A program made the position numbers and the translations under genes. The notes under the pieces are model-generated. The model did no database searches, was not told where the DNA came from, and worked only from the letters and a program-made list of their open reading frames with translations. Below, piece by piece: positions 1 through 56,756 of a DNA stretch of 64,000 nucleotides (the first letter of the stretch is position 1; each line of letters starts with the position of its first letter). The stretch is from the NCBI GenBank assembly GCA_030601865.1, contig JAUWAW010000001.1, forward strand, positions 46,433-110,432, written 5' to 3'. The DNA comes from Candidatus Nealsonbacteria bacterium (lineage in GTDB: Bacteria > Patescibacteriota > Minisyncoccia > Minisyncoccales > JAUWAW01).

Positions 1-302
1 GCCTCCAAGATATTAATCCTGTCAATAACCTTATGCCCGACTCTACCTATCCCCCACTCTATATCTGGATGCTGTTTCAAAAATTTGTAAACCTCCTCTC
101 TTTTTTTAGGTGATAATTTTTTACTATCTTTAAGGGTTGTCATCCTGAGCGAAGCCCGCCCAACTTTCTTCGAAAGTTGGGCGGGCGAAGCGAAGGATCC
201 CGTCGTTTTTACTACTACCGCCGCAGCCACCACTGGGCCTGAAAGCGGTCCGCGGCCTGCTTCATCAATTCCCACCATACGTTTATATCTCTTTTTCGCC
301 AT
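1..302 (-). CDS. rnhB: Ribonuclease HII (partial, N-terminal part; runs off the window start)
   Basis: My own translation of the minus strand from the ATG at 302..300 gives MAKKRYKRMVGIDEAGRGPLSGPVVAAAVVV...LKDSKKLSPKKREEVYKFL, the classic RNase HII N-terminus. It carries a roughly 60-nt in-frame palindromic insert at 140..200. Confidence 0.8.
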   Translation of the reverse strand, partial: MAKKRYKRMVGIDEAGRGPLSGPVVAAAVVVKTTGSFASPAQLSKKVGRASLRMTTLKDSKKLSPKKREEVYKFLKQHPDIEWGIGRVGHKVIDRINILE

Positions 303-4174: not shown

Positions 4175-5914
4175 ATGTCAAACAAAAAAATAGAAAAAAT
4201 TCGGCATTCGCTGGCGCATATTATGGCTGCAACGGTTAAGGAGCTTTATCCAAGAGTCAAATTCGGTATTGGCCCGGCCATTGAAAATGGTTTTTATTAT
4301 GATTTTGATTTAACCTCTCCTCTGTTCCCTGAAAATCTGCCAAAAATTGAAAAGAAAATACGGGAATTGATTAGAAAAGATTTAAAGTTTGAGAAAGAAA
4401 GTATTTCAAGAACAGAAGCCAAAAAAATATTTAAAAACCAACCATATAAATTCGAATTAATTAAAGAACTAAAAGGGCTACAAGTTTCATGTTTCAAGTT
4501 TCATGATTTCGTTGACTTGTGCAAGGGGCCTCATATTAAATCAACCAAAGAAATAAATCCCAAGGCGTTCAAATTAACTAAAATCGCCGGGGCTTACTGG
4601 CGGGGTGATGAGAAAAACCCCATGCTCACCCGCATTTATGGCGTGGCCTTTGAAACAGAAAAAGAATTAAAAGATTATTTAAAACAAGTTGAAGAAGCAG
4701 AACAAAGAGACCATCGTGTTTTGGGTGAAAAATTGGACTTATTTCATATTGATAAAGCCATCGGCCCAGGCCTTATCCTTTGGCATCCCAAAGGCGCACT
4801 CCTCAAAAAAATCATTGAGGATTATGTGCTTTCAGAATACCTAAAAGCCGGCTATCAACTGGTTAACACTCCCCATATTGCTAAAATTTCCATTTGGGAT
4901 ACCTCGGGCCACACCAAATTCTACAAAGACAGTATGTTCCCAGTCATGCAACTCAAGGAAATGGGCAAGGTAATCCCTTATCAGCTCAAACCAATGAATT
5001 GCCCTTTTCATATCTTGATTTATCAAAAAGAAATTAGAAGTTATCGCCAATTACCTATCCGATACACTGAATTAGGCACGGTTTATAGATACGAGAAATC
5101 AGGCACCTTGCACGGGCTGACGCGAGTGCGTGGTTTTACTCAAGATGATGCTCATATTTTCTGCACTCCTGAACAACTTGGTAAAGAGTTAGTGTCTGTT
5201 TTAAAACTAACTTTAAAAATATTTAAAACTTTTGGTTTTAAAGAATTTGAGATATGTCTTTCCACCCGGCCAAAAAAATATGTTGGCACTTTAAAAAGTT
5301 GGCAGAAAGCCACCAATGCTTTAAAATATGCCTTGGAAAAAGTAAAACTTGCCTATCAAATTGACCCTGGCGAGGGCGTTTTCTATGGACCCAAGATTGA
5401 CATTAAAATCAAAGATTCTTTGGGAAGGGCTTGGCAGTGTACCACCATCCAAGTTGATTTCAATTTACCTGAGGGATTTAATTTAAGCTATATTGATAAA
5501 AAAGGCAAAAAGAAACAGCCCATTATGATTCACCGAGCGCTTCTGGGTTCTTTGGAAAGATTTATTGGCGTTTTGATTGAGCATTATGCAGGCGCTTTCC
5601 CTTTGTGGCTGGCTCCAGAACAGACTTGGATTATTCCCGTAGGTACCCGTCACAAAAAATACGCCCGTGAAACATGCAAACAACTCTACGAGAACAGTTC
5701 TCGTAGTATTGTAAAAGACGCCAATGAAACCGTTTCCAAAAAAATAAGGGAAGGGGAAATCCAAAAAATTCCCTATCTCTTGGTTGTCGGCGACAAAGAA
5801 ATAAAAAGAAAATCAGTTAGGGTCCGCCAGCGAGGCAAGGGCGATATTGGAAAAATGAAACTGAATAAATTTATAGAAAAATGCCAGAATTGTCTTTGCA
5901 AACGCAAAAATTAA
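4175..5914 (+). CDS. thrS: Threonyl-tRNA synthetase (short form lacking N-terminal TGS/N1 domains)
   Basis: Starts in the N2/editing-type region (RHSLAHIMAA) and contains class II motifs including HRALLGSLERFIGVLIEHYAGAFPLWLAP, with the anticodon-binding domain at the C-terminus. Confidence 0.9.
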   Translation: MSNKKIEKIRHSLAHIMAATVKELYPRVKFGIGPAIENGFYYDFDLTSPLFPENLPKIEKKIRELIRKDLKFEKESISRTEAKKIFKNQPYKFELIKELKGLQVSCFKFHDFVDLCKGPHIKSTKEINPKAFKLTKIAGAYWRGDEKNPMLTRIYGVAFETEKELKDYLKQVEEAEQRDHRVLGEKLDLFHIDKAIGPGLILWHPKGALLKKIIEDYVLSEYLKAGYQLVNTPHIAKISIWDTSGHTKFYKDSMFPVMQLKEMGKVIPYQLKPMNCPFHILIYQKEIRSYRQLPIRYTELGTVYRYEKSGTLHGLTRVRGFTQDDAHIFCTPEQLGKELVSVLKLTLKIFKTFGFKEFEICLSTRPKKYVGTLKSWQKATNALKYALEKVKLAYQIDPGEGVFYGPKIDIKIKDSLGRAWQCTTIQVDFNLPEGFNLSYIDKKGKKKQPIMIHRALLGSLERFIGVLIEHYAGAFPLWLAPEQTWIIPVGTRHKKYARETCKQLYENSSRSIVKDANETVSKKIREGEIQKIPYLLVVGDKEIKRKSVRVRQRGKGDIGKMKLNKFIEKCQNCLCKRKN

Positions 5915-7455
5915 TCTCCCGCTATCAAGAGTGGTATCAATCTAAACAACCTCAAGAAGGTGTGCCGACCATCCATGTTGATGAAGTGGCCTCTAAGGTG
6001 GCTGCTTTTTATGAGAGAATCAGAGAGGTAGTGGATTGGAAAGAAGAACATCTGATGAGAAGAGCGGCCATAAGCAGGATGGTCAAAAGAAGGTTGCTTT
6101 TGGGCGAAAACCACCAGGATATGGCTGAATCCTTAATAATGGAATTAATCAGAGGAGGACACTTTCCTAACGATAAAATTGAAGAAAACAAGATTGAAGA
6201 GGTGCAAAAAATAATTGATAAGTATAGATTTATTCTTAAAAAGAGTCCTAAACCGCCCAAGGAAAAATTAAAAATCCAACTTTACAACTGGATTTTGGGA
6301 ATTGCTGCTTGTGAGGTTGAAGAAGCCTTGTCACCTCCCCTGAGAGAAAGAGCCCTGATGAATTATATGACTAAATTGATGCAGGAAAGAATTAGAATCA
6401 GCCAAGGAATTCTTGTCATCGGAGGGATGACAGAAGAAGAAAAAAATATCCAAACATATATCGCAGTGCAGCGGGCTTTATTTAAATTAGACGCGCCCCT
6501 TATCAGTTATAATCTTTTTAAAAAAAGATACCCTAACTACTATAGTGAGAACATTTACTCTGTTTGGGAAAGTGTAGAAAATGACTTAAACCATCCTCTG
6601 GCTGACAAGTTCTATAGAATCTGCGAAAAATATGACACGGCTTATCTACTTTTAGGTGATGTTCTATCTAAAGACCCCATGGGAGTCCAAGAAAAAATCT
6701 CACAACCGGCGGTTTTAGAAAGCGCTATCAAAAATGCCTATAATCAACGACTCAGCACACTCAAATCTCGGCTCTCTCGAGCAGCTGTTTATGCCACTTT
6801 ATCTATATTTCTGACCAATATTGTCTCCCTTTTAGCAGTGGAGATTCCATTTACTTGTTATGTTACCGGCCATTTTAATTTTTGGGCCATTGGCGTAGAT
6901 ATCCTAGGCCCCACTTTTTTAATGGCCTTTTTAGTAGTAACCATTAGGCCTCCTAAAAAAGAAAATTTGACTCATGTAATAATGGAAACGATGAAAATTG
7001 CCTATCAAAAAGAGAGAAAAGACATTTATGAGATTAAAATTAGAAAAAAACGAGGAATTATTCTCAATTTTATTATCAGTCTTTTTTACTTTTTCAGTTT
7101 CTGTCTATCGGTTGGTTTAGTAATTTGGGGGCTTTATAAAGTGCATTTTCCCATACTTTCTTATCCTATTTTTGTTATCTTTATTTCCTTAATTGCCTTT
7201 GCTGGAGCTAAAATCAGAGAAAGAGCCAAAGAATTACATATTATAGAAAAGAAAGAAAGTATGCTCAATATCGTGCTTGATTTATTTTCTGTACCCATTG
7301 TCCATTTGGGAAAATGGTTGTCAATCCGCTGGAAAAAGTATAATGTTATCTCGGTTTTTTTCAGCGCCTTAATAGATATGCCCTTTTTGCTTTTTGTAGA
7401 ATTCTTAGAACAATGGAGATACTTTCTCAAAGAAAAGAAAGAAGAAATCCACTAA
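5881..7455 (+). CDS. Hypothetical protein with soluble N-terminal domain and C-terminal multi-TM region
   Basis: Long ORF with no family I can recognise. The C-terminal 200 aa are strongly hydrophobic (about 4 TM). The 5' end overlaps thrS by 34 nt, so the true start is probably an internal ATG. Confidence 0.45.
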   Translation: MPELSLQTQKLISRYQEWYQSKQPQEGVPTIHVDEVASKVAAFYERIREVVDWKEEHLMRRAAISRMVKRRLLLGENHQDMAESLIMELIRGGHFPNDKIEENKIEEVQKIIDKYRFILKKSPKPPKEKLKIQLYNWILGIAACEVEEALSPPLRERALMNYMTKLMQERIRISQGILVIGGMTEEEKNIQTYIAVQRALFKLDAPLISYNLFKKRYPNYYSENIYSVWESVENDLNHPLADKFYRICEKYDTAYLLLGDVLSKDPMGVQEKISQPAVLESAIKNAYNQRLSTLKSRLSRAAVYATLSIFLTNIVSLLAVEIPFTCYVTGHFNFWAIGVDILGPTFLMAFLVVTIRPPKKENLTHVIMETMKIAYQKERKDIYEIKIRKKRGIILNFIISLFYFFSFCLSVGLVIWGLYKVHFPILSYPIFVIFISLIAFAGAKIRERAKELHIIEKKESMLNIVLDLFSVPIVHLGKWLSIRWKKYNVISVFFSALIDMPFLLFVEFLEQWRYFLKEKKEEIH

Positions 7456-7460
7456 CCTAA

Positions 7461-9419
7461 ATGAAATATCATATTGTTACTTACGGCTGTCAAATGAATA
7501 AAAGCGACAGTGAGAGGATTGCTACACTATTAGAGAATAAAGGATATCAGCCCGCGAAAGATATTTCTCGGGCTGATTTGGTAGTAATTAATATGTGTTC
7601 TGTTCGCCAAAAACCGGTAGACAAAGCCAAAAACCAGATTGCTCGTCTCCGCAATAAAAAAATTATTTTAATAGGTTGTATTTTAGATGCTGACAAAAAA
7701 GAATTTGCAAAAATGGGAGTTAAAATCTGGAGAGGTCTGACCTCTGCAAAACTTGCAGAGGTCAGACCTCTAACTGGTTTTGTGCCCATTATGAGAGGGT
7801 GTAATAATTTTTGTTCATACTGTGTTGTGCCTTACACTCGAGGGCCGGAAAAATATCGCAGTCAAAAAGAAATTATTGGCGAAGTTAAACATCTTCTTAA
7901 AAAAGGAATTAAAGAAATTACTTTGCTGGGTCAAAATGTCGATAGTTATAAATATAAACCACCACGGGATCCTTCGGCTTCGCCTCAGGATGATAACTCC
8001 GTTGTCAATTTTGTAAAATTACTTCAGAAAATTACTGTCTTGCCCGGCGATTTTAAGATTAAATTTATTACCAATCATCCCAAAGATTTTTCTGATGAAC
8101 TAATCGATGAGATTGCTCGGAATGACAAAATAATCAAATATGTTCACTTGCCAGTGCAGTCAGGTGATAATAAAATCTTAAAAAAGATGAACCGCAATTA
8201 TACTGGTGAGCAGTATTTGGCTTTGATTAAAAAAATTAAAAAGAAAATACCTAATGTTGACCTAACAACTGATATTATTGTTGGCTTTCCCGGTGAAACC
8301 GAAAAACAATTCCAAAAGACAGTTAACTTGTTTAAAAAGATTAAATTTGCTACCGCCTACATTGCCAAATACAGCCCCCGCCCCGGCACCGTTGCCTATA
8401 AACTAAAAGACAACGTCCCCCTCGCAGAAAAAAAGCGCCGAGAACAAACCCTGAGAAAATTAATACCTCCTACCCGTCATTCTGAGGCGAAGCCGAAGAA
8501 TCTCAACCAACGAGATCCTTCGGCTCGCTATCACTCGCCTCAGGATGACAATAACAAACTTATTGTTATTTTGGGGCCGACGGCTGTAGGGAAAACAGAG
8601 TTTTCAATAAAGCTGGCCAAAAAATTTAACGGCCAGGTGATTTCGGCTGACTCCCGTCAGGTCTATAAAGGAATGAACATCGGAACAGGTAAAATAAGCA
8701 AAAAAGAAAGGCAAGGTATCCCCCACTATCTTTTAGATATTGCCTCCCCCAGAAGAAGGTTTTCGGTTGCCCAATATCAAAAAAAGGCGATTGAAGTCAT
8801 AAACAAAATTTTAAAAAAGAAAAAAATCCCGTTTTTAGTAGGCGGAAGTCCTTTTTATATTTACTCTATTGTTGAGGGTTGGGTTTTTCCCAAAATGAAA
8901 GCCGACTTAAAACTGAGAAAAGAATTGGAAAAAAAATCAATTGAAGAACTTTTCAACATATTAAAAAAACTCTCTCCGCAGAGAGCCAAAACAATTGAAA
9001 AGAAAAACAAAAGACGGCTTATCAGGGCAATTGAGATTGCCAAGGCTTTAGGCAAAGTTTTGCCTCTGAAAAAAAATCCCCAATTTGATTGTTTGTTAAT
9101 AGGGATTAAACTAACAAAAGAAAAATTACAAAAAAAAGTTTCCCAAAGAGTTGATAAAATGATTGAATTAGGTCTTGAAAAAGAAGTAAAAAAATTATCT
9201 GAAAAATACGGCTTCAATTCTGTGTTGGGAGAAAGTATTGGCTACCAAGAATGGGAAAAAAGCGGCAGCCGGGCTGCCGCTGAAATAGCAGAGGAAATAA
9301 AATTTAATACTTATCATCTTGCCAAGCGGCAAATGACCTGGTTCAAAAAAGATAAAAGAATCCTTTGGGTTGAGAATTATAAACAAGCGGAAAATTTGAT
9401 CAAAAATTTCTTGGTATAA
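7461..9419 (+). CDS. miaB: Fusion protein: MiaB-like methylthiotransferase (MTTase N-domain + radical SAM, no TRAM) fused to MiaA tRNA dimethylallyltransferase
   Basis: N-terminus MKYHIVTYGCQMNKSDSE followed by the radical SAM motif GCNNFCSYCVVP. The C-terminal half has the MiaA P-loop LIVILGPTAVGKTEFSIKLA...ISADSRQVYKGMNIGT. The linker between the two halves is built from palindromic element sequence. Confidence 0.85.
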   Translation: MKYHIVTYGCQMNKSDSERIATLLENKGYQPAKDISRADLVVINMCSVRQKPVDKAKNQIARLRNKKIILIGCILDADKKEFAKMGVKIWRGLTSAKLAEVRPLTGFVPIMRGCNNFCSYCVVPYTRGPEKYRSQKEIIGEVKHLLKKGIKEITLLGQNVDSYKYKPPRDPSASPQDDNSVVNFVKLLQKITVLPGDFKIKFITNHPKDFSDELIDEIARNDKIIKYVHLPVQSGDNKILKKMNRNYTGEQYLALIKKIKKKIPNVDLTTDIIVGFPGETEKQFQKTVNLFKKIKFATAYIAKYSPRPGTVAYKLKDNVPLAEKKRREQTLRKLIPPTRHSEAKPKNLNQRDPSARYHSPQDDNNKLIVILGPTAVGKTEFSIKLAKKFNGQVISADSRQVYKGMNIGTGKISKKERQGIPHYLLDIASPRRRFSVAQYQKKAIEVINKILKKKKIPFLVGGSPFYIYSIVEGWVFPKMKADLKLRKELEKKSIEELFNILKKLSPQRAKTIEKKNKRRLIRAIEIAKALGKVLPLKKNPQFDCLLIGIKLTKEKLQKKVSQRVDKMIELGLEKEVKKLSEKYGFNSVLGESIGYQEWEKSGSRAAAEIAEEIKFNTYHLAKRQMTWFKKDKRILWVENYKQAENLIKNFLV

Positions 9420-9429
9420 CTTTATGTAA

Positions 9430-9451
9430 ATAACTCACGATCGTGAGTTAT
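9430..9451. terminator. 22-bp perfect palindrome (ATAACTCACGATCGTGAGTTAT) between convergent miaB-miaA and gatB; candidate bidirectional terminator
   Basis: Perfect self-complementary 22-mer with a CGATCG core, lying between two converging stop codons. Confidence 0.5.
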
Positions 9452-9456
9452 AAACA

Positions 9457-10914
9457 TTAAAGAAGTTGCTTTAATATTTGATTAACCAGTCCCGGGCTGG
9501 CTTTTCCTTTTGTTTGAGCCATAACTTTGCCCACCAGGAATTGTAAGGCGTTTTCTTTTCCCTTTTTATAATCCTCAACTGGTTTTGGGTTTTTATTAAT
9601 AACTTCTTTTATTATTTTTTCAATTTTTTTCTCATCAGTCATTTGTTGCCAGCCCTTTTCTTCAATAATATGGGAAGGGTCTCCTCCAGTGCCAAACATC
9701 TCTTTGAGAACGGTCTTAGCGATTTTGCTTGAAATCTCACCTTTGTAAATCAAAATAATAAACTCAGCAAAATTCTCGGGAGTGATGAGAAAATCCTCGC
9801 CGACAATAGAGGCCCCCTTCAAAAGACCTTGTAGGTCAGTAACAATATAGTTGACAGCCAATTGGGTGAACTTTTTAGTTTGCTTAATCTTTTCAATCTT
9901 TGCCCAGTTGTCCAGTTCAGACATAACTTTCTCAAGATATTCGCCCAAATTTTTATTAAAAACAAAAATTTCAATTTCCTCATCTTTGAGCGCGTATTCT
10001 CTTTTGAAACGTTCTCTACGGGACTGAGGCAATTCAGGAATTTCTGCTTTAATTTCATTGATAAAATCTTCTTCAAGATGAAGCGGAGGAAGGTTAGGTT
10101 CTGGAGCATGCAGGTCTTCCGTGGAAAACATACCACCTCCTTTTTTTCTCTGAGAAAAAGTCATTCCTTTTTCATCGTCCCATCCTCTTGTTTCGGGAAG
10201 CACTTTTTTACCCTTTTTCAAGAGTTCTCTTTGTCTTTCAATCTCAAATTCTGTTGCTTTTTCTGCTGCCCGGAAAGAATTTAAATTTTTAATCTCTACC
10301 TTTGTTCCTAATTTTTTACTGCCTTTCAGCGCCATTGAGATATTTACCTCCACCCTCATCTGACCTTTTTCCATATTAGCTTCAGAGACATTTAAGTATC
10401 TTAAGAGTATTTGCAATTCTTGGGCGAATTTCCTTGCTTCTCTTGCTGAACTAATATCGGGCTCTGTCACTAATTCTATAAGGGGTATCCCAGCTCGATT
10501 AAAATTAACTAAAGAATAATCTTCTTTATGGATTAACGTCCCCACATCTTCTTCTAAATGGAGTTCATGGATTCGTATTTTCTTAGCATCAATTTTTAAA
10601 AAACCATTCTTGCCCAAAGGAGAAATATCTTTACTTATTTGGTATCCTTTAGGTAAATCTGGATAGAAATAAAGCTTGCGAAAGAATTCGGACTTTCTAA
10701 CAATCTCACAATTCAGAGCTAGAGCAGTTTTAACTATCTTTTTCACCGTTTCTTTATTGAGAACCGGAAGCACTCCTGGGTGACCCATACAAATCGGACA
10801 AATATTGACATTGGCATGACTTTCGTTAACGTTATTCAGGCAAGAACAAAACATTTTGCTCTTGGTATTAAGTTCTATATGTATTTCTAAGCCAATTGTT
10901 GGTTGATAGTTCAT
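9457..10914 (-). CDS. gatB: Asp/Glu-tRNA amidotransferase subunit B
   Basis: N-terminus MNYQPTIGLEIHIELNTKSKMFCSC and a GatB/YqeY C-terminal domain. Confidence 0.9.
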   Translation of the reverse strand: MNYQPTIGLEIHIELNTKSKMFCSCLNNVNESHANVNICPICMGHPGVLPVLNKETVKKIVKTALALNCEIVRKSEFFRKLYFYPDLPKGYQISKDISPLGKNGFLKIDAKKIRIHELHLEEDVGTLIHKEDYSLVNFNRAGIPLIELVTEPDISSAREARKFAQELQILLRYLNVSEANMEKGQMRVEVNISMALKGSKKLGTKVEIKNLNSFRAAEKATEFEIERQRELLKKGKKVLPETRGWDDEKGMTFSQRKKGGGMFSTEDLHAPEPNLPPLHLEEDFINEIKAEIPELPQSRRERFKREYALKDEEIEIFVFNKNLGEYLEKVMSELDNWAKIEKIKQTKKFTQLAVNYIVTDLQGLLKGASIVGEDFLITPENFAEFIILIYKGEISSKIAKTVLKEMFGTGGDPSHIIEEKGWQQMTDEKKIEKIIKEVINKNPKPVEDYKKGKENALQFLVGKVMAQTKGKASPGLVNQILKQLL

Positions 10915-15950: not shown

Positions 15951-16090
15951 TGAAATAACCAATAACCAAGATACAATAACCAAACAAATCTCAATAACCA
16001 ATAATCAATAACCAATTATATAATGTTTGGTTATTGGTGTTTGAAGATTGGTTATTGTTTGGTTATTGTTTCTTGTATCTTGGTGATTGA
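15951..16090. repeat. About 140-bp imperfect palindromic element rich in AATAACCA / TGGTTATT (copy 1 of 2), filling the nusG-rplK spacer
   Basis: Left arm aataaccaagatacaataaccaaacaa pairs with right arm ttgtttggttattgtttcttgtatcttggtgatt. It is about 85% identical to the copy at 56757..56884. Confidence 0.7.
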
Positions 16091-16639: not shown

Positions 16640-16650
16640 ATTTGAGCTCT

Positions 16651-16720
16651 AATTCAAGATTATATATTTATACATTAGCGAATCAAGGTTCTAGCGGAGC
16701 GTTAGCGAGGCAGGTTCTTA
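16651..16720. promoter_or_regulatory. Repeat family F copy 1 (AATTCAAGATTATATATTTATACATTAGCGAATCAAGGTTCT...GGTTCTTA), 12 nt upstream of the nusG start; candidate promoter module
   Basis: Four copies occur in the window. Read on the minus strand each gives TTGATT-N17-ATAATC-like -35/-10 boxes pointing into the downstream minus-strand gene. Confidence 0.45.
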
Positions 16721-16922: not shown

Positions 16923-16993
16923 TTAATTCAAGATTATATATTTATATATTAGCGAATCAAGGTTCTGACGAGCGTTAGCGAGGCAGGTTCTTA
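16923..16993. promoter_or_regulatory. Repeat family F copy 2, 2-5 nt upstream of the secE start
   Basis: Same sequence family as 16651..16720. Confidence 0.45.
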
Positions 16994-21181: not shown

Positions 21182-21417
21182 TTTGCATTTTGTATTTTTA
21201 ATTTAGTTATAGCAGCTATCTCTCTGGCAATGCCCAGATGACAAAAACAATCATGCGCTCTATTGGGCAGAACATCAATATCCAAAATCCAATCTTTGCC
21301 TTTTTTCTCAACGCTCTCCACCTCAAAACTATGCATGGTCAAAAGCTGAGCCAAGTCCTTTGGTTTAGGCAGTTTCTTATTAAAAAAAGATTGTAGCCAA
21401 TTGTAAGAGAAAATCAT
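21178..21417 (-). CDS. pheT: PheT N-terminal fragment (79 aa), overlapping the main pheT ORF by ATGA in a different frame
   Basis: MIFSYNWLQSFF...LPNRAHDCFCHLGIAREIAAI matches the PheT N-terminus and B1 region. The OB-fold tRNA-binding domain is absent. Confidence 0.65.
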   Translation of the reverse strand: MIFSYNWLQSFFNKKLPKPKDLAQLLTMHSFEVESVEKKGKDWILDIDVLPNRAHDCFCHLGIAREIAAITKLKIQNAK

Positions 21418-21460
21418 AACCCTACGAATTACGAATTATTACGAATATACGAATAATTAA

Positions 21461-22303
21461 TTATTTAATTGCTAAATTTTTGTGTCTTTCCAATCCTTCT
21501 GCATAAAGCTTCTGGATTTGGGCAGCGCTCAGGGCTTGGGAATAGATGCGGACGTCGTCGATGAGGCCGTGAAACTTATCACTATCTGTAAGGCTATAAG
21601 CCCCTATTAAACACTTCTTATCTGGCGTCGCTGTTGGCAAAGAAGACTGACCACCCAAGGCTATCTGTTTACCGTCTACATATATCTTTAAATTCGTTCC
21701 ATCAGCGACGCCAACCACATAATGCCAAGTGTTTAACTCCAAAAAACCACTACCAGAATCAAGGGCACCAAAAGTCCCTTTCAATCTAATACTACCATTC
21801 AACTCAATGCTTAGGATATAGTTGTGAACACTGAAAACCGGAGACTGCCCTTTGCTCAAAATAGTTCTCCAATTATTACGTGAAATTTGCTTTATCCACG
21901 CTCCTACTGTTAATCCGTCAGTAATATCTAAAGTTGAATCAGTCCCGCAATCCACATAATTATCTATTCCGTCAAAACTCAAAGCCATGCCACCAGTGCC
22001 TCCGCCAGGAACTTCTACTCCTTGAGCCTGAACAGCTCCATAAATAGTGCCATCATTACCATAGCCAGACCTGTCAGGAGTTTTATTGCCTTCTATTGTC
22101 TCAAAGCTCCAAATACCAACTGCTTCTGCTCCTAAAGCATTCTGAATTGACTGACTGAATTGTAAGGATTTAACAAGTTCGGCTGCTCTTCTTTTTCCCG
22201 GTAAGTCCAAGGCGACCAAAACAATACTGGCCAATAACCCGATAATCGCAATGGCTACTAATAGTTCAATAACAGTAAAAGAATTTTGTGTCTGGAATTT
22301 CAT
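21461..22303 (-). CDS. Type IV pilin-like protein (N-terminal FTVIELLVAIAIIG methylation/cleavage motif) with C-terminal LamG/concanavalin-like domain
   Basis: The N-terminal hydrophobic segment matches the class III signal/prepilin motif. The C-terminal approximately 180 aa have a LamG-like jellyroll pattern (TWHYVVGVADGTNLKIYVDGK). Confidence 0.65.
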   Translation of the reverse strand: MKFQTQNSFTVIELLVAIAIIGLLASIVLVALDLPGKRRAAELVKSLQFSQSIQNALGAEAVGIWSFETIEGNKTPDRSGYGNDGTIYGAVQAQGVEVPGGGTGGMALSFDGIDNYVDCGTDSTLDITDGLTVGAWIKQISRNNWRTILSKGQSPVFSVHNYILSIELNGSIRLKGTFGALDSGSGFLELNTWHYVVGVADGTNLKIYVDGKQIALGGQSSLPTATPDKKCLIGAYSLTDSDKFHGLIDDVRIYSQALSAAQIQKLYAEGLERHKNLAIK

Positions 22304-33254: not shown

Positions 33255-34229
33255 ATGTCGTTTTCAATAGGCATTATTGGTCTGCCCAATGCGGGCAAGT
33301 CCACCCTATTTAAGGCCTTAACCAAAAAAGAGGTTGAAATCGCTCCCTATGCTTTTACCACTCGAGACCCCAATATTGGTATTGTTTCTGTTCCCGATAT
33401 AAGGTTAAAAAAAATTGCTGAAAAGATAAAGCCCCAAAAAATAACCCCCACTTTTATTAAATTTGTAGATATCGCTGGGTTGGTAAAAGGTGCCCATAAG
33501 GGAGAGGGTCTAGGCAACCAATTTTTGGCACATATTAGAAACTGCGATGCTGTGGTGGAGGTGGTGCGAGCTTTTGAAAACGCTGAAATAGAACATGTTG
33601 AGGGCTCTGTTGAGCCAAAAAGAGACATTGACATAATTAAAACAGAACTCTTGATGAAAGATTTGGAAATTTTGGAAAAATGCGGTCTTTTTCCAAAAAT
33701 TAAAGAGCAAGTATCTCAAGACAAACTAATTTCAGAAATGAATCTGTCGGAAGAAGAAAAACTTGCCATCAAAGAGTATCAATTTTTAACTGAAAAGCCC
33801 AGAGTTTTTGTTTTTAATGTATCGGGAGGCCATCCCGATAGGAGCGACGAAACGCTTTCTCTGGATCTCAAGTTAGAAGAAGAACTTTCTGAACTCTCAG
33901 AAGCAGAAGCAGAAGAATTAGGCATGGACTCCCAACTTGATAAATTAATCACCGCCTGCTACAATATCCTTGACCTGATTACTTTTTTTACTGTCACCGG
34001 GGGGAAAGAGACCAGGGCCTGGACTCTAAAAAAAGATTCAAAAGTGTTTGAAGCAGCTGGCTACGTCCATTCTGATTTTGCGGAAAAATTTATCAAAGCC
34101 GAAGTCATTCCCTGGCAACAATTAGTAGAAGCTCAATCCTGGACAGGGGCCCGTGAAAAAGGCTGGCTCAGAACAGAAGGAAAAGAGTATATAGTCAAGG
34201 ACGGAGATGTAATTGAATTCAAAATATAA
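33255..34229 (+). CDS. ychF: Ribosome-binding ATPase YchF (Obg-family) with C-terminal TGS domain
   Basis: GIIGLPNAGKSTLFKALT and FTTRDPNIGIV, followed by a TGS-like C-terminus. Confidence 0.9.
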   Translation: MSFSIGIIGLPNAGKSTLFKALTKKEVEIAPYAFTTRDPNIGIVSVPDIRLKKIAEKIKPQKITPTFIKFVDIAGLVKGAHKGEGLGNQFLAHIRNCDAVVEVVRAFENAEIEHVEGSVEPKRDIDIIKTELLMKDLEILEKCGLFPKIKEQVSQDKLISEMNLSEEEKLAIKEYQFLTEKPRVFVFNVSGGHPDRSDETLSLDLKLEEELSELSEAEAEELGMDSQLDKLITACYNILDLITFFTVTGGKETRAWTLKKDSKVFEAAGYVHSDFAEKFIKAEVIPWQQLVEAQSWTGAREKGWLRTEGKEYIVKDGDVIEFKI

Positions 34230-34316
34230 CCCTACGAATTACGAATTCATACGAATATACCAATAATTATCCCTTATTAAAAATTCGTATATTCGTAAGT
34301 ATTCGTAATTCGTAGG
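34230..34316. repeat. About 87-bp palindromic element built from TACGAAT heptamers (ACCCTACGAATTACGAATTCATACGAATATAC ... ATTCGTATATTCGTAAGTATTCGTAATTCGTAGG); repeat family G full copy
   Basis: Arms are reverse complements. Half-copies occur at 4149..4168 and 21418..21450, each abutting a start or stop codon. Confidence 0.65.
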
Positions 34317-34321
34317 AGAAT

Positions 34322-35273
<952 letters not shown>

Positions 35274-40488: not shown

Positions 40489-41640
40489 TTAACATATAAT
40501 TATTCCGCCGCCTAAAAGTTTTTCTCCTTTATAGAAAACCACTGATTGACCCGGGGTGACGGCGCGTTGGGGCTTGGCAAAAATTACTTTACAGCGCCTG
40601 CCCGCTATTTTTTTTATTGCTTCAACTTCAATTACTGGCGAACGATACCTTATTTTCGCTTTTATCCCAACTATTGGAGTTGAACTCCAATAGTTTGAAA
40701 TCCAGTTAACATCTTTGACAATCAATTCTTTTTTTTCCAAATGTTTTTCGTTCTTGGTGACAATTAAAGCATTATTTTTGACATCCTTGTCTAAAACATA
40801 GTATGGACCTCCGGCAAGCCCTATCCCCTTTCGCTGACCAATAGTATAAAACCACAACCCCTGATGCTCGCCAATACTACGAGAACAGTTCTCGTAGTAT
40901 TCTAAGATGGGGCCAGGATTTGTTTTAAGATGTTTTCTCAAAAATTCCTCTGTTGTTTTTTTAATAAAGCAAACTTCTTGAGATTCTCTGGCTTCAAGTA
41001 CCGGCAAGTCAAACTCCTTGGCCATCTGTCTTACTTGTCTTTTGGTGTAATCCCCAATGGGAAACAAAATGTGTTTTAATTGTTTCTGGCCCAACTGCCA
41101 TAAAAAATATGATTGATCTTTTTCTTTATCTTTTGCTCTTACCAATGTGTAATTTTGTATTTTTGTGTCAGAATTCTGCGACCTGCCCGTAATGCTTCGC
41201 ATAGCGATACAGGCGGGTCGCAGGATTTTGACACAGTTTAGATCTTTATTTGTATTTTCACATTTACGCGCATAGTGGCCAGTGGCAATAAAATCTGCGT
41301 CCAAGCCCAAGGCTTTTTTCAATAAAAGTCCAAATTTTATTTCTTTGTTGCAGACCACACAAGGGTTGGGGGTTCTGCCTCTTTTATATTCTTTCAAAAA
41401 ATAATTAATGATTTTTCTCTTAAACTCTTTTCTTAAATCCAAAACCAAAAATGGAATGCCTAATTTTTTAGCAATTTTTCTGACTCTTCTCTCACTTTCT
41501 CTGAAATGAGACGACTCATAAAGTTTCATAAAAACTCCTGTTACATTAAAATTAGCCCTTTTAAGAAGGGCTGCTGCTACCGAACTATCCACGCCACCGG
41601 ACATCGCCACTATTACCTTATTTTTTCTTTTTGCTTTCAT
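40489..41640 (-). CDS. mnmA: tRNA-specific 2-thiouridylase MnmA (carries two in-frame palindromic inserts)
   Basis: PP-loop VIVAMSGGVDSSVAAALL and the catalytic Cys regions. The inserts are at 41164..41235 and 40874..40900. Confidence 0.85.
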   Translation of the reverse strand: MKAKRKNKVIVAMSGGVDSSVAAALLKRANFNVTGVFMKLYESSHFRESERRVRKIAKKLGIPFLVLDLRKEFKRKIINYFLKEYKRGRTPNPCVVCNKEIKFGLLLKKALGLDADFIATGHYARKCENTNKDLNCVKILRPACIAMRSITGRSQNSDTKIQNYTLVRAKDKEKDQSYFLWQLGQKQLKHILFPIGDYTKRQVRQMAKEFDLPVLEARESQEVCFIKKTTEEFLRKHLKTNPGPILEYYENCSRSIGEHQGLWFYTIGQRKGIGLAGGPYYVLDKDVKNNALIVTKNEKHLEKKELIVKDVNWISNYWSSTPIVGIKAKIRYRSPVIEVEAIKKIAGRRCKVIFAKPQRAVTPGQSVVFYKGEKLLGGGIIIC

Positions 41641-42007
41641 GGTCCTTGATGGCTGATTTAAGGGCTGTTTCGGCTAATCGGATACAATGAAGTTTTGGTT
41701 TGGGAACTTCGCCCACTTGTTCAGCAATATCGTCAAAAGTAATCTTCTTTGCCTGTTTCAACGTCTTGCCTTCTGCCAAAGCGCAAATCATATCTGAAAT
41801 GGCTATGGCGTGTCCGCATCCGAGCGTTTCAAATTTTGCCTCTTTAATACGTTCTTTTCCATCCTTTTTTTCTACTTTGATATAAATTTTCATCACGTCG
41901 CCACACCTCAAATTTTGGGTATCCCCTACTCCATTTGCATCTTTAATCTTGCCCAAGTGTCTGGGGTGTAAAAAATGCTCCATTATTTTTTTTGAGTAAT
42001 AAACCAT
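41618..42007 (-). CDS. iscU: Fe-S cluster assembly scaffold (IscU/NifU-like)
   Basis: MEHFLHPRHLG...LRCGDVMKIYIKV...LGCGHAIAISDM. Confidence 0.8.
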   Translation of the reverse strand: MVYYSKKIMEHFLHPRHLGKIKDANGVGDTQNLRCGDVMKIYIKVEKKDGKERIKEAKFETLGCGHAIAISDMICALAEGKTLKQAKKITFDDIAEQVGEVPKPKLHCIRLAETALKSAIKDHESKKKK

Positions 42008-47028: not shown

Positions 47029-48833
47029 TAACTTCTAAGGAGTTTCAGGTATATTTCCTCGGGAATAGGGGTGCGGCCGTGTTTTTGGAGAATTTTTTTG
47101 CCTTTGCGTTGTTTGACTAAGAGTTTCTTTTTGCGGGTAAAGTCGCCGCCGTACAGGGGCGCGGTCACATCCTTGCGCAGGGCGCGGATATCCTCACGCG
47201 CGATTATTTTGCCGCCAATTTGGGCTTGAAGCGATTGGGTAAAGTTTTTTGGAGGCAGGACATCCTTTAATCTTTTGAGAAACTGACGCGCCTGCTTGCG
47301 CGCCGCGTCTTTATAAACAATGCGCGAGAAACAGGGCTTCAGTTCGCGCGAAACCAAAAACTCAAGTTTAATAAGGTCGCTTTTTTTATACTCGTCAAAT
47401 TCGTAACTAAAGGAAGCGAACCCCTTGCTAATGCTTTTCAGTTTGTCTAAAAAATCCTCAATAATCTCAGCAAGCGGCGCATAAAACTCTAAAAGCAAGG
47501 TATCTTTATCTAAAACTTGCGAGGAAATAAACTTGCCTCGTTTCTGCTCAACTAATTCATGGATTTTGCTGTTGTGTCTGGTCGGGCTGACAATGTTTAA
47601 TTTAACCCAGGACTCCGCTATATAGTCAATCTCGCCCTGGTCCGGCAGTTCTGCGGCCGAATGGACTAAAATCGGCTCTTTTTGCTTTTTTGTCTTTACC
47701 TTGAAAACAACCGAAGGAGAAGTAAGAACCACTTGGGTGCCATACTCCCGCTTTAACCTTTCCATGGTGATTTCCAGATGAAGCATACCTAAAAAGCCGA
47801 TGCGCAGTCCCCTGCCTAAATAAGGATTGCTCATAGGTTTGGCTGTGAGAGAAGTGTCGTTGAGCCGCAGTTTGTCAAAATTGGCTTTCAGGGTTTCAAA
47901 GTTTTGGCCTTGCCCTTGCCCCTGCCCCGGAAAAACATTGGCAAAAACCAATGGCTTGGGCTCTTTATAGCCAGGCAGGCGAGGACAGTCCTCGCCTGAT
48001 TTGGTTGTTATTGTCTCGCCGATTCTGACGTCTGAAACGTTTTTTATGCCCGTGGCGATGTAGCCGATTTGGCCGGCTATTAGTTTTGGCACAGGACTAC
48101 GTTGCGGTATGAAAATGCCGACTTCTCTTGTTTCGGCGCGGACTTTTTGATTGACAAAATAAATTTGGTCGCCTTTTTTGATTTCGTTGCCAAACAGCCG
48201 CACATAGGCAATTACTCCCTGAAAATTGTCGTAAATTGAATCAAAAACCAGGGCTTTTAATACTCCTCCGCCCTCTGTTTTTGGCTGCGGCGCCTGCTTT
48301 ATCAACGCTTCAAGAACTTTCTCTATATTCTCGCCTGTTTTGGCGGAAATAGTTAAAATTTCCCCTGAATCAATACCTAAAAGATTGGCTAATTCCTGCT
48401 TAACTTTTTCTAATTGCTCCTCGCTCGGACAAACATCTATTTTATTGATAACCGGTATTATTTTCAAACTCTGCGCCTGCGCCAGGCGCAGATTAGCCAG
48501 GGTCTGTGCCTGAATGCCTGAAACCACGTCAACCAATAAAATAACACATTCAACAGCGGCCAAAGACCGTTCTACTTCATAGGAAAAATCCATATGGCCA
48601 GGCGTGTCAATCAAGTTTAATTGGTACTTGCGGCCGGCCAGACCATACTCCATTGCACAGGGCTGCATCTTGATAGTGATGCCGCGCTCTCTTTCCAAAT
48701 CCATCTGGTCCAAAACCTGTTCGCGCATCTGCTCTTTCTTCAAGGTGTTGGTAATTTCCAAAAACCGGTCAGCCAGAGTTGATTTGCCGTGGTTTATATG
48801 CGCGATTATAGAGAAATTTCGTATATTTCCCAT
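47028..48833 (-). CDS. lepA: Elongation factor 4 (LepA)
   Basis: G-domain IIAHINHGKSTLADR and DTPGHMDF, and the LepA C-terminal domain. Visibly GC-richer than its neighbours, and contains a GQGQGQ insert. Confidence 0.9.
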   Translation of the reverse strand: MGNIRNFSIIAHINHGKSTLADRFLEITNTLKKEQMREQVLDQMDLERERGITIKMQPCAMEYGLAGRKYQLNLIDTPGHMDFSYEVERSLAAVECVILLVDVVSGIQAQTLANLRLAQAQSLKIIPVINKIDVCPSEEQLEKVKQELANLLGIDSGEILTISAKTGENIEKVLEALIKQAPQPKTEGGGVLKALVFDSIYDNFQGVIAYVRLFGNEIKKGDQIYFVNQKVRAETREVGIFIPQRSPVPKLIAGQIGYIATGIKNVSDVRIGETITTKSGEDCPRLPGYKEPKPLVFANVFPGQGQGQGQNFETLKANFDKLRLNDTSLTAKPMSNPYLGRGLRIGFLGMLHLEITMERLKREYGTQVVLTSPSVVFKVKTKKQKEPILVHSAAELPDQGEIDYIAESWVKLNIVSPTRHNSKIHELVEQKRGKFISSQVLDKDTLLLEFYAPLAEIIEDFLDKLKSISKGFASFSYEFDEYKKSDLIKLEFLVSRELKPCFSRIVYKDAARKQARQFLKRLKDVLPPKNFTQSLQAQIGGKIIAREDIRALRKDVTAPLYGGDFTRKKKLLVKQRKGKKILQKHGRTPIPEEIYLKLLRS

Positions 48834-50434
48834 TAATATTCTTCTTCAAAGATTTGGGCGGTGAAAGTGTAGAGGTCAATATCTTCTTCTTTCCAGCAGT
48901 CCCAGGGCAGACCGACTTTTTGAAAGCAAAGTTCTCCCATAAATTTTTCTAAATCCCAATTATTGTCAGTAGCTACTTGGGGCAGAAAAACACCATTTCT
49001 CAAGCCCTTTCTAATTTGCACGCCGTGTTTGCCAATCTCAATTCCCTGCCAATTATCAATTTTCTCTAAGGGACTCAAAACCGAAATTTCATAGTCAAGC
49101 TCACCAAGTTCATCCTCTCCCACAGGATAAAATCTTTTATCCTGGGTGGCAGCCGCAATGGCCATTTGAGAAACAACTTGATACAGAGGTATGTCAGTGG
49201 GTGAAAAACGGCCAATGCAGCCCCGTAGCTGGCTCTGCTTCTTTAAAGTAACAAAAGCACCCAAGTTTTGATTTAATATGGATTCTTCAACTTGAAATTC
49301 TGGAATTTTACCTTCTTTGACAAAAGTTTCAACTGAATTCTTAGCGATTTCCAAAAGTTTTTCTTGCTCTGTTTTCTTTAATAAATGACTCTGTCTTGGT
49401 CCAAAAAAGCCAATGGCTGCATAGCCAACCACTTGCGATTTATCACCTATGGGCACGTCTCCGGAATTGGCATATTTTAATAATTTAATTTCTTCAGCAG
49501 CCAATTCTTTGGCTACTAACATGATTGTTTTGATAGCATCTTCTGCGCAAACAAAAGTTACTGCTCCAGGAATATTCTCTTTTTCCAAGTCCTGAATTGT
49601 TTTTTCTAACTCCCCTACCCTACCGGTTAAAATGGCTTCAATGGTTTTGCTATCTGCCTGTTGAGCATCACCATAGCTAGGATAATGCGACAAATCAGAA
49701 CTGGCAATCAGTAAAATATTCTTACCTCTGATATTTTTAACAATGGCTTGAGCTAAAATTTTGTAATCTTCTTCTGGGCTGTTGCCCAAAATAATGGGTA
49801 CAATCCGTGGTACGTGCACGGACAAAGGAGATCCTTCGGCCTTCGGCCTCAGGATGACTTGCAAAAAAGGTAATTCCACCTCAAGGGAATGCTCTCTTTG
49901 ATGAACACTCTCTCTGAAAAAAATTCTTTCGTTTTCTGCAATAATTTTTTCAGCTAATTGAGAATCTATTTCTACTTCTCCTAAGGGAGTTTTATAAAAA
50001 CCTCGTGGGAAAATAGAAATACCTTCAAATCTCTCATAATGGCTGTTGCCAATAAGAATCACCGTAGCAAATTGGTTCAAATCGTGACGATCGTCATAAC
50101 TTGAACCACCCATCAGTTGCTTAAAGCCGTAGGCGGCCACGGGGCCAGAAAATGGATAGCCAGCATGGGGCAGAACTAAAGCAAAAATCTCGCCTTCGGT
50201 TTCTGGCGGACTTGCCTTTTCCAAAAATTGGTCAATCATTTTCTCTAACTCCTCAGGGTCTCCAGGATAAAATTGTCCAGCCACTGCCGGCTGCCGAATT
50301 ATTTTTTCTTCTTTTTCAAAAACGTCTGAAACCATAGCTTTTTGAGAAATATCTTCCCCTCCCTTAAATATTAAAAGTATACTAATCGCACCAACAACAA
50401 AAATTAATAAAGCTATTATTAGAACTTTCTTCAT
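48833..50434 (-). CDS. Fusion of AmmeMemoRadiSam system protein B (MEMO1-like) and protein A (AMMECR1 domain), with N-terminal signal/TM anchor
   Basis: MEMO-like motifs (ALVLPHAGYPFSGPVAAY; the SSDLSHY region) in the N-terminal half. The C-terminal half has the AMMECR1 motif GAFVTL...LRGCIG. Confidence 0.7.
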   Translation of the reverse strand: MKKVLIIALLIFVVGAISILLIFKGGEDISQKAMVSDVFEKEEKIIRQPAVAGQFYPGDPEELEKMIDQFLEKASPPETEGEIFALVLPHAGYPFSGPVAAYGFKQLMGGSSYDDRHDLNQFATVILIGNSHYERFEGISIFPRGFYKTPLGEVEIDSQLAEKIIAENERIFFRESVHQREHSLEVELPFLQVILRPKAEGSPLSVHVPRIVPIILGNSPEEDYKILAQAIVKNIRGKNILLIASSDLSHYPSYGDAQQADSKTIEAILTGRVGELEKTIQDLEKENIPGAVTFVCAEDAIKTIMLVAKELAAEEIKLLKYANSGDVPIGDKSQVVGYAAIGFFGPRQSHLLKKTEQEKLLEIAKNSVETFVKEGKIPEFQVEESILNQNLGAFVTLKKQSQLRGCIGRFSPTDIPLYQVVSQMAIAAATQDKRFYPVGEDELGELDYEISVLSPLEKIDNWQGIEIGKHGVQIRKGLRNGVFLPQVATDNNWDLEKFMGELCFQKVGLPWDCWKEEDIDLYTFTAQIFEEEY

Positions 50435-50482: not shown

Positions 50483-51595
50483 TTATTCCCAAACACCAGG
50501 GATTTTTTCGCCATCGGAGCATTGGCCGTTTTGGAGGTTGTTTTGGGTGACAAAAAAGCCTTGCCTGACAATGGCCGGCTCTCCTGATTCAGGGCAAAAG
50601 GTGGTGCTGCCTTCGGGGTCGTAAATGTTGCCGGTGTAAACATATTTCAGGCCATACTCCTGAGCCATTTGCCGGGCTTTCTGCAAGGTCTCAATAGGAG
50701 TGGGAGGCAGATTAAGTAACTTGTAATCAGGATGAAAACGGGTAAAATGCAAAGGGATATCTGTGCCCAGATTTTCTTTAATCCATAAAATTAAATTTCT
50801 GAAATCTTCTTCCCGGTCGTTTTCTGTGGGAATAACCAAATTGACAATTTCCAGCCAGACACCTTGTTCCTTGATAATCTTCATTGCTTCCAAAACAGGC
50901 CCCACATGGCCAGCTGTCATTTCCTGATAAAATTTGTCATCAAAGCCCTTAAAGTCAATTTTGTAAGCATCAATGTAGGGCAAAAGGTCTCTTAAGGGTT
51001 CGGGGTTAATGTAGCCAGCGCTAATAACCACATTTTTCAAACCGTTTTCATGCGCCAATAGAGCAATGTCTAACATATATTCGTAAAAAGCAGTTGGTTC
51101 AGTATAAGTAAAAGCAATTGATTGGGCGCCTGATTTTAAGGCCTTTTCCACCACTTGTTGGGGCGTCATTTTTATTGATGACACCTCCCAAGGGAAAACC
51201 TGGGCAATCTGCCAGTTTTGGCAAAATTTACACTGCAAATTGCAGCCGGTAGTGGCAATAGAATAAGTTTTAGTGCCGGGCAGAAAATGATAAAGCGGTT
51301 TTTTCTCAATGGGGTCAAGGTGTGAGGCAACAATTTGCCCGTAAACTATGGAGTAAAGTTCTCCCTCTATATTCTTTTTGGCTCGGCAAATCCCAATTTG
51401 ACCCTCAGATAAAATACATCTATTGGGACAAAGATTACATCTCACCATTTTACTGCCCAATTTCTCATAGTACTTGGCTAAATGTAAATCTTGGGGAGTA
51501 ACCCCTCCCCCGCGCTCTCTACCCCAAATAAGAAACACAGCCAAACCAACAATGATGATTAAAAATATAATGGCGCCTATCTTTGCTTTAAGCAT
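50483..51595 (-). CDS. AmmeMemoRadiSam system radical SAM enzyme with N-terminal TM anchor
   Basis: CNLQCKFCQNW (CxxxCxxC), with upstream Cys-rich CNLCPNRC...C. The N-terminus is a hydrophobic helix. Confidence 0.7.
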   Translation of the reverse strand: MLKAKIGAIIFLIIIVGLAVFLIWGRERGGGVTPQDLHLAKYYEKLGSKMVRCNLCPNRCILSEGQIGICRAKKNIEGELYSIVYGQIVASHLDPIEKKPLYHFLPGTKTYSIATTGCNLQCKFCQNWQIAQVFPWEVSSIKMTPQQVVEKALKSGAQSIAFTYTEPTAFYEYMLDIALLAHENGLKNVVISAGYINPEPLRDLLPYIDAYKIDFKGFDDKFYQEMTAGHVGPVLEAMKIIKEQGVWLEIVNLVIPTENDREEDFRNLILWIKENLGTDIPLHFTRFHPDYKLLNLPPTPIETLQKARQMAQEYGLKYVYTGNIYDPEGSTTFCPESGEPAIVRQGFFVTQNNLQNGQCSDGEKIPGVWE

Positions 51596-51609
51596 AAAAC
51601 CCTTTTATT

Positions 51610-51645
51610 TGTGTCAAAATCCTGCGATCGCAGGATTTTGACACA
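51610..51645. terminator. 36-bp perfect palindrome TGTGTCAAAATCCTGCGATCGCAGGATTTTGACACA (family B copy), intergenic
   Basis: Perfectly self-complementary. The identical sequence occurs at 56120..56155, and an expanded variant lies inside mnmA. Confidence 0.6.
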
Positions 51646-51651
51646 GTTTTA

Positions 51652-56117: not shown

Positions 56118-56119
56118 AC

Positions 56120-56155
56120 TGTGTCAAAATCCTGCGATCGCAGGATTTTGACACA
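56120..56155. terminator. 36-bp perfect palindrome (family B copy) between dnaB and recR
   Basis: Identical to 51610..51645. Confidence 0.6.
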
Positions 56156-56160
56156 AAATT

Positions 56161-56754: not shown

Positions 56755-56756
56755 AA

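Follow-up and report, generated by a model that had tools for sequence, protein, structure and literature searches.

A TRAM-less MiaB–MiaA fusion with in-frame palindromic insertions in a Candidatus Nealsonbacteria contig

The stretch of DNA considered here, referred to below as the window, consists of 64,000 nucleotides (nt) of contig JAUWAW010000001.1 from Candidatus Nealsonbacteria bacterium (assembly GCA_030601865.1), a member of the Patescibacteriota. Positions 7461–9419 of its forward strand hold a single open reading frame (ORF) of 652 residues (aa), running from ATG to TAA and continuous in the assembly, in which the tRNA-modifying enzyme MiaB, lacking its TRAM domain, is joined to MiaA (MiaBA hereafter). 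Its product is 100% identical to one database protein (P0001). MiaA uses dimethylallyl diphosphate to make i6A37 in tRNAs that read UNN codons; MiaA and MiaB act in sequence on A37 and are separate, unlinked enzymes in model bacteria, and TRAM is regarded as the RNA-binding module of MiaB. The fused gene is interrupted by several palindromic sequences that are read in frame, among them copies of a short hairpin, element A, whose inverted doublet forms the inter-domain linker. The gene order ThrRS, 523-aa membrane protein, MiaBA and convergent gatB is common to the window and to the locus (L001) of the closest syntenic orthologue, protein P0002.

Domains of the fused protein

A first-pass annotation of the ORF had described it as the MTTase N-domain and radical-SAM core of MiaB followed by a complete MiaA, and the Pfam and NCBIfam profiles bear this out, with the catalytic motifs intact. 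The MTTase N-terminal domain UPF0004 (PF00919, E 3e-22) spans aa 2–85 (7464–7715, forward strand) and contains the auxiliary-cluster cysteines C10, C46 and C73, and the radical-SAM core (PF04055, E 3e-33) spans aa 108–290 (7782–8330, forward strand), with the motif C114-x3-C118-x2-C121. Across 120 homologues C46, C73, C114, C118 and C121 are invariant; C10 lies inside a conserved YGCQMN motif, and GQNV, PxQSG and other invariant motifs are retained in the MiaB half. The MiaA half (aa 367–639; 8559–9377, forward strand) has its P-loop GPTAVGKT at 372–379 and DSRQ at 397–400, and residues G372, T374, G377, K378, D397, S398, R399 and Q400 are each at least 90% conserved and mostly invariant. This half matches the MiaA models over their full length, as had been proposed: TIGR00174 is covered at profile positions 1–285 of 288 (256 bits against a cutoff of 148.65), and the IPPT family PF01715 at positions 1–243 of 243 (aa 400–631; E 2e-64, 217.8 bits against a cutoff of 23.6).

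The absence of TRAM, also claimed in that annotation, is upheld by several observations. TRAM (PF01938) gave no Pfam match in the window protein, even at E≤0.1, and the same scan was positive for a fused relative (P0104) and for loci L008–L010. The MiaB equivalog profile (NCBIfam TIGR01574) is covered only to about position 369 of 437, and alignment to TRAM-bearing fused relatives leaves a gap of about 65 residues. Bacteroides uniformis MiaB (7mjz/7mjv, 457 aa) can be aligned only through residue 378; therefore, its C-terminal TRAM is without a counterpart in the window protein. A tblastn search with the MiaB half, the MiaA half and TRAM found no paralogue and no stand-alone TRAM within the 64-kb window.

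It could be argued that the N-terminal half is no longer MiaB, being either inactive, now that TRAM is gone and two insertions are present, or directed to another substrate (e.g., t6A, like MtaB). Its TIGR01574 score, 350.9 bits, falls just under the cutoff of 355.3, and there are insertions within the catalytic half. However, the lower score is attributable to the missing TRAM, which accounts for about 70 profile positions; the subfamily model TIGR00089 is matched with 372 bits against a cutoff of 251; and the MiaB profile outscores those of MtaB (263.7 bits, 87 behind MiaB) and RimO (219.2 bits) on the N-terminal half, which makes it closer to MiaB as far as profiles can tell. All six cluster cysteines and the GQNV and PxQSG motifs are kept, the insertions lie in loops that are variable in the family and modelled with low confidence, and the linkage to MiaA, conserved across more than 100 sequence clusters, points to an i6A substrate. 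A change of identity is thus considered highly improbable.

An AlphaFold2 model of the window protein, built on the alignment of the 120 homologues, has a mean predicted local distance difference test (pLDDT) of 87. In Foldseek comparisons the MiaB half matches 7mjz/7mjv with a target-normalised template-modelling (TM) score of 0.65, as expected because TRAM is missing, and the MiaA half matches the Escherichia coli MiaA–tRNA complexes 2zm5/3foz with a target-normalised TM score of 0.86 and an rmsd of 2.4 Å. In sequence, the C-terminal half aligns with full-length solved MiaA entries.

Fused and separate miaB and miaA in Patescibacteria

Homologues were collected by a search of 5.8 billion proteins, from which the window protein and 119 other top matches were listed. 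All 119 are fused in the same way (UPF0004, Radical_SAM and IPPT) and come from metagenome-assembled genomes (MAGs) of Patescibacteria, labelled for example as Nealsonbacteria or 'Patescibacteria group', with 44–69% BLASTP identity to the window protein. A library of representatives at 50% identity gave about 17–20 two-domain clusters, followed by single MiaB or MiaA proteins, and matches from outside the Candidate Phyla Radiation (CPR) covered the MiaB half only. Fused proteins are present in the databases (e.g., Nealsonbacteria CP179889.1; NCBI, JGI) and are labelled only 'MiaA' or 'MiaB'. The fused architecture is, as judged from these sequences, inherited, old and common in the group. The window gene has an architecture already known in databases and unreported in the searched literature: no description or experimental study of a MiaB–MiaA fusion was found, a weak absence, with subscription papers mostly outside the search.

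This distribution also bears on the suspicion that an assembly or sequencing error in the hairpins has joined two genes, or a pseudogene, into one ORF. Strong palindromes can yield indel errors, and some MAGs do show the miaB and miaA halves in different frames. Against such an artefact, the reading frame of MiaA agrees with that of 119 independent fused homologues, the three inserts of the window gene are all multiples of three and free of stops, and an in-frame doublet is found independently at this site in a relative from a different sample (L003, encoding P0003). We regard the artefact as very improbable.

The length of the junction was measured from the anchor YSPRPGT, at the end of the radical-SAM core, to the MiaA P-loop, which could be done for 110 of the 120 listed proteins, that of the window among them. 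The distance is typically 33–50 aa, without the element and with essentially no linker; it reaches 61 aa in the window protein and 59 aa in P0003. Six fused relatives measure 99–111 aa and keep TRAM between the two halves (a precomputed match in five of the six; P0104 was re-scanned). Therefore, fusion would predate both the loss of TRAM and the arrival of the element.

In several Patescibacteria among the GTDB species representatives, miaB and miaA are separate genes, with miaA coming directly after miaB; the comparison of related genomes suggested in the first-pass annotation thus yielded both forms. The separate miaB retains TRAM in L008–L010 and lacks it in L005, L006, L007 and L012, the TRAM-less stand-alone proteins being 325–377 aa long. 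All four states thus exist in Patescibacteria: fused or separate, each with or without TRAM. The junctions at L006 (916–979) and L008 (4194–4209) are ATGA stop/start overlaps; a few bases overlap at L007 (4019–4038) and likewise in L010; the two genes of L012 (4092–4113) overlap or are immediately adjacent; and in L005 miaA starts about 330–360 nt downstream of the TRAM-less miaB. Because unfused pairs overlap by ATGA, the fusion is best explained by the merging of frames in a translationally coupled miaB–miaA pair, from which TRAM would have been lost separately.

Palindromic insertions and element A

The inserts of MiaBA were defined by codon-level comparison with L001 and L003, the linker segment being 8466–8555. 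The linker itself (8476–8549, translated as RHSEAKPKNLNQRDPSARYHSPQDD) is an element-A inverted doublet, consisting of a left arm TCATTCTGAGGCGAAGCCGAAGAATC at 8477–8502, a spacer of 11 nt and, on the other strand, the opposed copy TCATCCTGAGGCGAGTGATAGCGAGCCGAAGGATC at 8514–8548. The earlier description of the linker as two opposed copies stands, with the correction that the 9-nt interior expansion belongs to the 8514–8548 copy. A third copy in the gene, at 7968–7993, is an exact match, from which the 8477–8502 copy differs solely by a compensated C>T/G>A pair; in dinucleotide shuffles no element-A match is expected. The two arms of the doublet fold together into one long hairpin (DNA −25.2 kcal/mol, z −8.6; RNA −45.4 kcal/mol). 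The closest syntenic orthologue has just NKGRTF at this site, versus a 30-residue element-derived stretch in the window protein.

Two other insertions interrupt the MiaB half. The first is palindrome B (7729–7774), with perfect 19-bp arms around a loop of 3 nt, which is translated in frame to RGLTSAKLAEVRPL; it is also strongly folded (DNA −24.4 kcal/mol, z −9.75; RNA −40.5), and MiaBA is three codons longer here than its relatives. The second is a window-specific insertion of 18 codons (7950–8003, forward strand), absent from P0002–P0008, in the variable radical-SAM loop that follows GQNV(N/D)SY. Its core (7966–7995) is the solo element-A copy, read as RDPSASPQDDN, and the same loop is longer and variable in solved MiaB as well. 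All three inserts are window-specific with respect to the 119 relatives, and the window protein is alone among the 120 listed in carrying three palindromic insertions. In the AlphaFold2 model, aa 340–362 form the sole stretch with pLDDT below 50, and the 10-residue blocks aa 161–170 and 171–180 have means of 68 and 56. The model indicates that the inserts probably sit at permissive, disordered surface positions, with the catalytic motifs untouched.

Relatives of the window protein bear palindromes of their own. In P0003 (L003:1832–3742; 67% identical) a homologous doublet, alike in its termini but not in its interior, occupies the same codon position, and this protein also has its own palindrome-encoded peptide, CAPKSRLKSGRRRA, at about aa 62–76. 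Different palindrome-encoded peptides occur in MiaBA linkers or loops of P0019, P0042 and P0076; that in the linker of P0019 is a VRP...GLTS palindrome peptide, LVRPVKVFTGLTS, resembling palindrome B of the window. Such a pattern suggests that the same MiaBA loops have been repeatedly colonised by palindromes.

Element A is not restricted to MiaBA. The window contains five copies, all in frame, free of stops and inside the ORFs of three genes, three of them in MiaBA. Another lies in the RNase HII gene (139–200, reverse strand, in an ORF at 3–314 that runs off the window edge), where it has a nested 15-bp inner hairpin and is read as GSFASPAQLSKKVGRASLRMT; alignment to PDB structures reveals about 17–20 extra residues between the DEAGRG...AAAVV strand and DSKKLS. 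The last (49828–49859, reverse strand) is read as VILRPKAEGSP within a Memo–AMMECR1 fusion ORF. Beyond the window, contigs were scanned for exact matches to a 26-mer of the element, which was found in at least 120 metagenome stretches of 32–67% GC, with 131 copies among the matches listed (loci L084–L203). For a short hairpin of identical sequence, this is a strikingly wide distribution. Only 29 of these 131 copies lie inside long open frames, the other 102 being outside, mostly intergenic.

The structure of the element can be read from the metagenome copies. Its consensus is GTCATYCTGAG-GCGAAGC-CGAAGRATC, its termini (GTCAT...ATGAC) are inverted, and its centre GCGAAGC corresponds to d(GCGAAGC), a mini-hairpin of very high stability. 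A comparison of 125 unique copies gave G/TCATYCTGAGGCGAAGCCGAAGRATC/T as the conserved unit. For a MITE, target-site duplications would be expected on either side of the terminal inverted repeats; in these copies the flanks are not conserved and no duplication is obvious, very short duplications not having been tested rigorously. Positions Y5 and R23 covary in a compensatory manner (66 T-A, 58 C-G and 1 T-G), which supports an ATYCT/AGRAT stem. An inverted partner (GATYCTTC...TCAGRATGAC) follows within 45 nt in 64 of 124 copies versus 9 of 600 random positions, giving doublet units of 52–106 nt, and copies are often clustered with variant hairpins. Some form tandem repeats of 69–70 nt (e.g., L106:2631–2795 and L087:1461–1748); CRISPR arrays were considered for these spaced copies and ruled out, the intervening sequence being itself repeated, so that they are plain tandem repeats. 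Rfam identified only two tRNAs in the whole window at the gathering threshold, and at E≤5 only chance-level matches in 7400–9500, so that the hairpins belong to no known RNA family. No paper was found with the related variant CCTGAGCGAAGCGAAGG as a text string, nor any description of palindromic elements in CPR coding genes; both negatives are weak evidence, with subscription papers mostly outside the search.

The repetitive extragenic palindromes REP and REPIN are mobilised by RAYT (Y1) transposases, each encoded by a single-copy gene of the same genome; no such gene was noticed in the window, no search aimed at it having been made. By definition, a REPIN pairs two oppositely oriented REPs across a spacer (PMC3337134). 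By its sequence, element A is a widespread hairpin doublet of REPIN-like form. Because the element usually takes the form of an inverted doublet in metagenomes, the linker is best read as one insertion, probably a later, in-frame, REPIN-like doublet that entered an existing linker. The first-pass annotation had proposed a different history, in which insertion of the element, or recombination at the former gene boundary, joined miaB to miaA; in a fuller form of this scenario the recombination would involve two element-A copies, and the original miaB could have borne TRAM, lost in the same event. The doublet does lie exactly between the two halves, at the place of TRAM in TRAM-bearing relatives, and that of L003 occupies the same site. 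On the other hand, every one of the 119 other listed homologues is fused, and 108 of the 110 measured proteins lack element A, the syntenic orthologue among them; its peptides were found only in the window protein and P0003. Element-free fusion is the rule, fused TRAM-bearing forms exist, the ATGA overlaps explain fusion by frame merge, and a doublet is how element A normally occurs, not the scar of a recombination. An element-driven origin of the fusion was therefore abandoned, its probability being very small.

Further repeats and gene arrangements were observed in the window. A palindrome centred on CGATCG (9421–9460) fills the 37-nt gap between MiaBA and convergent gatB and, by its position only, is likely a bidirectional terminator-like hairpin. 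It belongs to a second palindrome family with members at 50074–50106, 58280–58312 and 58949–58981, and identical 36-nt perfect palindromes TGTGTCAAAATCCTGCGATCGCAGGATTTTGACACA are found at 51608–51649 and 56116–56157. Both families are centred on CGATCG or GCGATCGC, are mostly intergenic and terminator-like, and recall HIP1-type palindromes. The ORF that fuses a Memo-like domain (of the AmmeMemoRadiSam system protein B type) to AMMECR1 (48833–50434, reverse strand, 533 aa) has a second in-frame palindrome, of the CGATCG type, at 50073–50108, and the ORF beside it (50483–51595, reverse strand) resembles, by eye, the radical-SAM partner of that system. A palindrome in the ThrRS gene (5686–5711) was considered as an insertion and ruled out, there being no indel relative to the L001 orthologue; a similar one (40872–40897) and another related to a TGTGTCA...TGACACA family (41164–41235) are embedded in ORF 40492–41673 (reverse strand), both apparently read in frame. 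A long AT-rich inverted repeat of AATAACCAA-like units occurs at 15952–16088 and 56753–56884, 40.8 kb apart, with arms of about 64 nt and 76–94% identity, and could represent mobile-element ends or a regulatory structure common to both sites. Another dispersed repeat, 63 nt long and with an element-A-style hairpin at its end (...AAGGTTCTNGAGCGAAGCGAGAGGTTC), is found at 16649–16711, 16923–16985 and 62700–62825, and a CCTACGAATTACGAAT repeat at 21411–21461 and 34221–34323, where 34224–34323 is an inverted repeat with 46-nt arms. Finally, GatB (9457–10914, reverse strand) has, at about nt 10080–10150, a divergent KKGGGMFSTEDLHAPEPNLPPLHLEEDFI versus the usual EAAHDYRYFPEPDLP motif of L001, and no alternative frame of this segment restores that motif.

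Proposed function and comparison with known systems

Taken as a whole, the window gene is likely an inherited bifunctional enzyme acting on tRNA A37 in which the hairpin insertions are passengers. The MiaA half would transfer a dimethylallyl group to N6 of A37, giving i6A, after which the MiaB half, with its auxiliary and radical-SAM [4Fe-4S] clusters, would methylthiolate C2 to give ms2i6A. The two tRNAs of the window (Leu-CAG and Ala-CGC) are not expected MiaA substrates. In the proposed history, ancestral adjacent and overlapping miaB and miaA genes would have been fused by a one-base, reversible frame merge, and the RNA clamp TRAM lost after fusion or linkage, apparently more than once. 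Mobile hairpins would have arrived later: the element-A doublet in the existing short linker, the solo copy in the variable radical-SAM loop and the second palindrome ahead of the radical-SAM core. They may have been retained since they keep the frame, contain no stops and are confined to disordered surface segments, with a longer flexible linker and very stable mRNA hairpins as possible side effects.

How the enzyme would manage without TRAM is a more delicate matter. A tethered or adjacent MiaA could grip the same anticodon stem-loop, providing tRNA affinity and proximity, and the i6A product might pass to the MiaB site without full release; this role of the MiaA half as tRNA clamp or hand-over partner for the MiaB half has, in our opinion, roughly even chances of being correct. 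Domain swaps in Bacillus subtilis have shown that MiaB and MtaB can exchange their TRAM domains, i6/t6 discrimination residing in other domains (PMC2952846), which fits TRAM as a generic RNA clamp replaceable by another module. The same location of substrate discrimination can be cited for a simpler view, namely that the fusion serves only 1:1 co-expression, as can the occurrence of TRAM-less MiaB as a separate polypeptide beside miaA in L005, L006, L007 and L012 and the lack of a fixed interface in the AlphaFold2 prediction. Against it, every TRAM-less miaB examined is fused to, or followed by, miaA, which is suggestive, only such contexts having been examined, and non-CPR matches covered the MiaB half only. 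Co-expression as the sole purpose seems unlikely, although it is the strongest of the competing explanations. A wider proposal joins both lines: that MiaA replaces TRAM in Patescibacteria, the fused or translationally coupled pair being a processive A37 module in which i6A formation and methylthiolation take place in one tRNA encounter, and that element A is an undescribed, cross-phylum, REPIN-like mobile hairpin colonising the coding sequence of gene-dense CPR genomes in frame, in the manner of the Rickettsia palindromic elements, and remodelling loops and linkers of essential enzymes. That both parts hold together is a tentative idea, with chances somewhat below even.

Several observations weigh against the clamp and passenger account. 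Both active sites need the same A37, and MiaA cannot hold it in its channel while MiaB acts; consequently, a rearrangement, a second binding mode or a hand-over step would be needed. The activity of either half and the tRNA hand-over are inferred from sequence, and the inter-domain geometry of the AlphaFold2 model is not confident (predicted TM score 0.58, versus a mean pLDDT of 87). TRAM-less MiaB also occurs as a gene apart from, but beside, miaA, and therefore covalent fusion is not strictly required for the loss of TRAM. A neighbour-joining tree scatters TRAM-bearing and separate forms over several positions; this scatter makes more than one TRAM loss probable from the sequences, and the tree, too crude for counting, does not settle how many fusions, fissions and TRAM losses took place, nor in what order. 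Its use was confined to the local grouping window,(P0002,P0003), where P0002, the sister of P0003, is without the doublet that the window protein and P0003 share, so that either a precise loss in P0002 or two gains at one site are needed. Besides, the frame across the hairpins is known here from the assembly alone.

The interest of the fusion is that more than 100 sequence clusters in which the enzymes are joined and TRAM is absent offer a direct test of the contribution of TRAM and of channelled, successive tRNA modification; if the proposal is true, they are a natural experiment in which an RNA-binding domain has been replaced by the preceding enzyme of the pathway. Judged from its genes, ms2i6A synthesis would be retained in highly reduced CPR genomes. 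There are also practical consequences, since fused proteins are now annotated as one half only, and in-frame hairpin inserts, which look like domain linkers, can lead evolutionary inference astray, as they did in the first-pass reading of this gene. The inserts also suggest that mobile palindromes remodel proteins outside Rickettsia in a way similar to that described in this genus.

In comparison with known palindromes, element A is like a REPIN in being a short imperfect hairpin that typically forms two inverted copies with a short spacer, making a longer hairpin, and that is often clustered; such a pair, with its 11-nt spacer, is present at 8477–8502 and 8514–8548. In contrast to REP and REPIN, which are extragenic, all five window copies are inside ORFs, and whereas REP and REPIN are lineage-specific, the identical element-A 26-mer across contigs of 32–67% GC argues against lineage specificity. 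Another parallel is found in the Rickettsia palindromic elements, in-frame repeats in unrelated housekeeping genes that are translated as fold-compatible surface peptides (PMC10969869). Like them, element A is in frame, free of stops and compatible with the fold, in low-pLDDT loops. However, the Rickettsia elements measure about 100–150 bp, versus 26–74 nt for element A, or about 28 nt for a solo copy and 52–106 nt for a doublet; the two are unrelated in sequence; the former are known from one genus, whereas element A occurs across very diverse taxa and, elsewhere, mostly outside genes.

Apart from the missing TRAM, each half is an unremarkable representative of its family. With regard to the solved enzymes, the MiaB half resembles B. 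uniformis MiaB (7mjv–7mjz) in the three UPF0004 cysteines, the CxxxCxxC core and an identity of 37%, and differs from it in lacking the C-terminal TRAM, in having MiaA in its place and in two additional palindrome-encoded loop segments. The MiaA half resembles E. coli MiaA–tRNAPhe (2zm5/3foz) and Bacillus halodurans MiaA (2qgn/3exa) over the full length, P-loop and DSRQ included; unlike them, its N-terminus is tethered to the MiaB core via a linker of about 30 residues, compared with about six in relatives. Among the Patescibacteria fusions the window protein shares the same architecture and domain order, with a syntenic nearest relative; it differs from them in its three palindromic insertions, whereas six relatives keep TRAM and some sister genomes have the two genes unfused.

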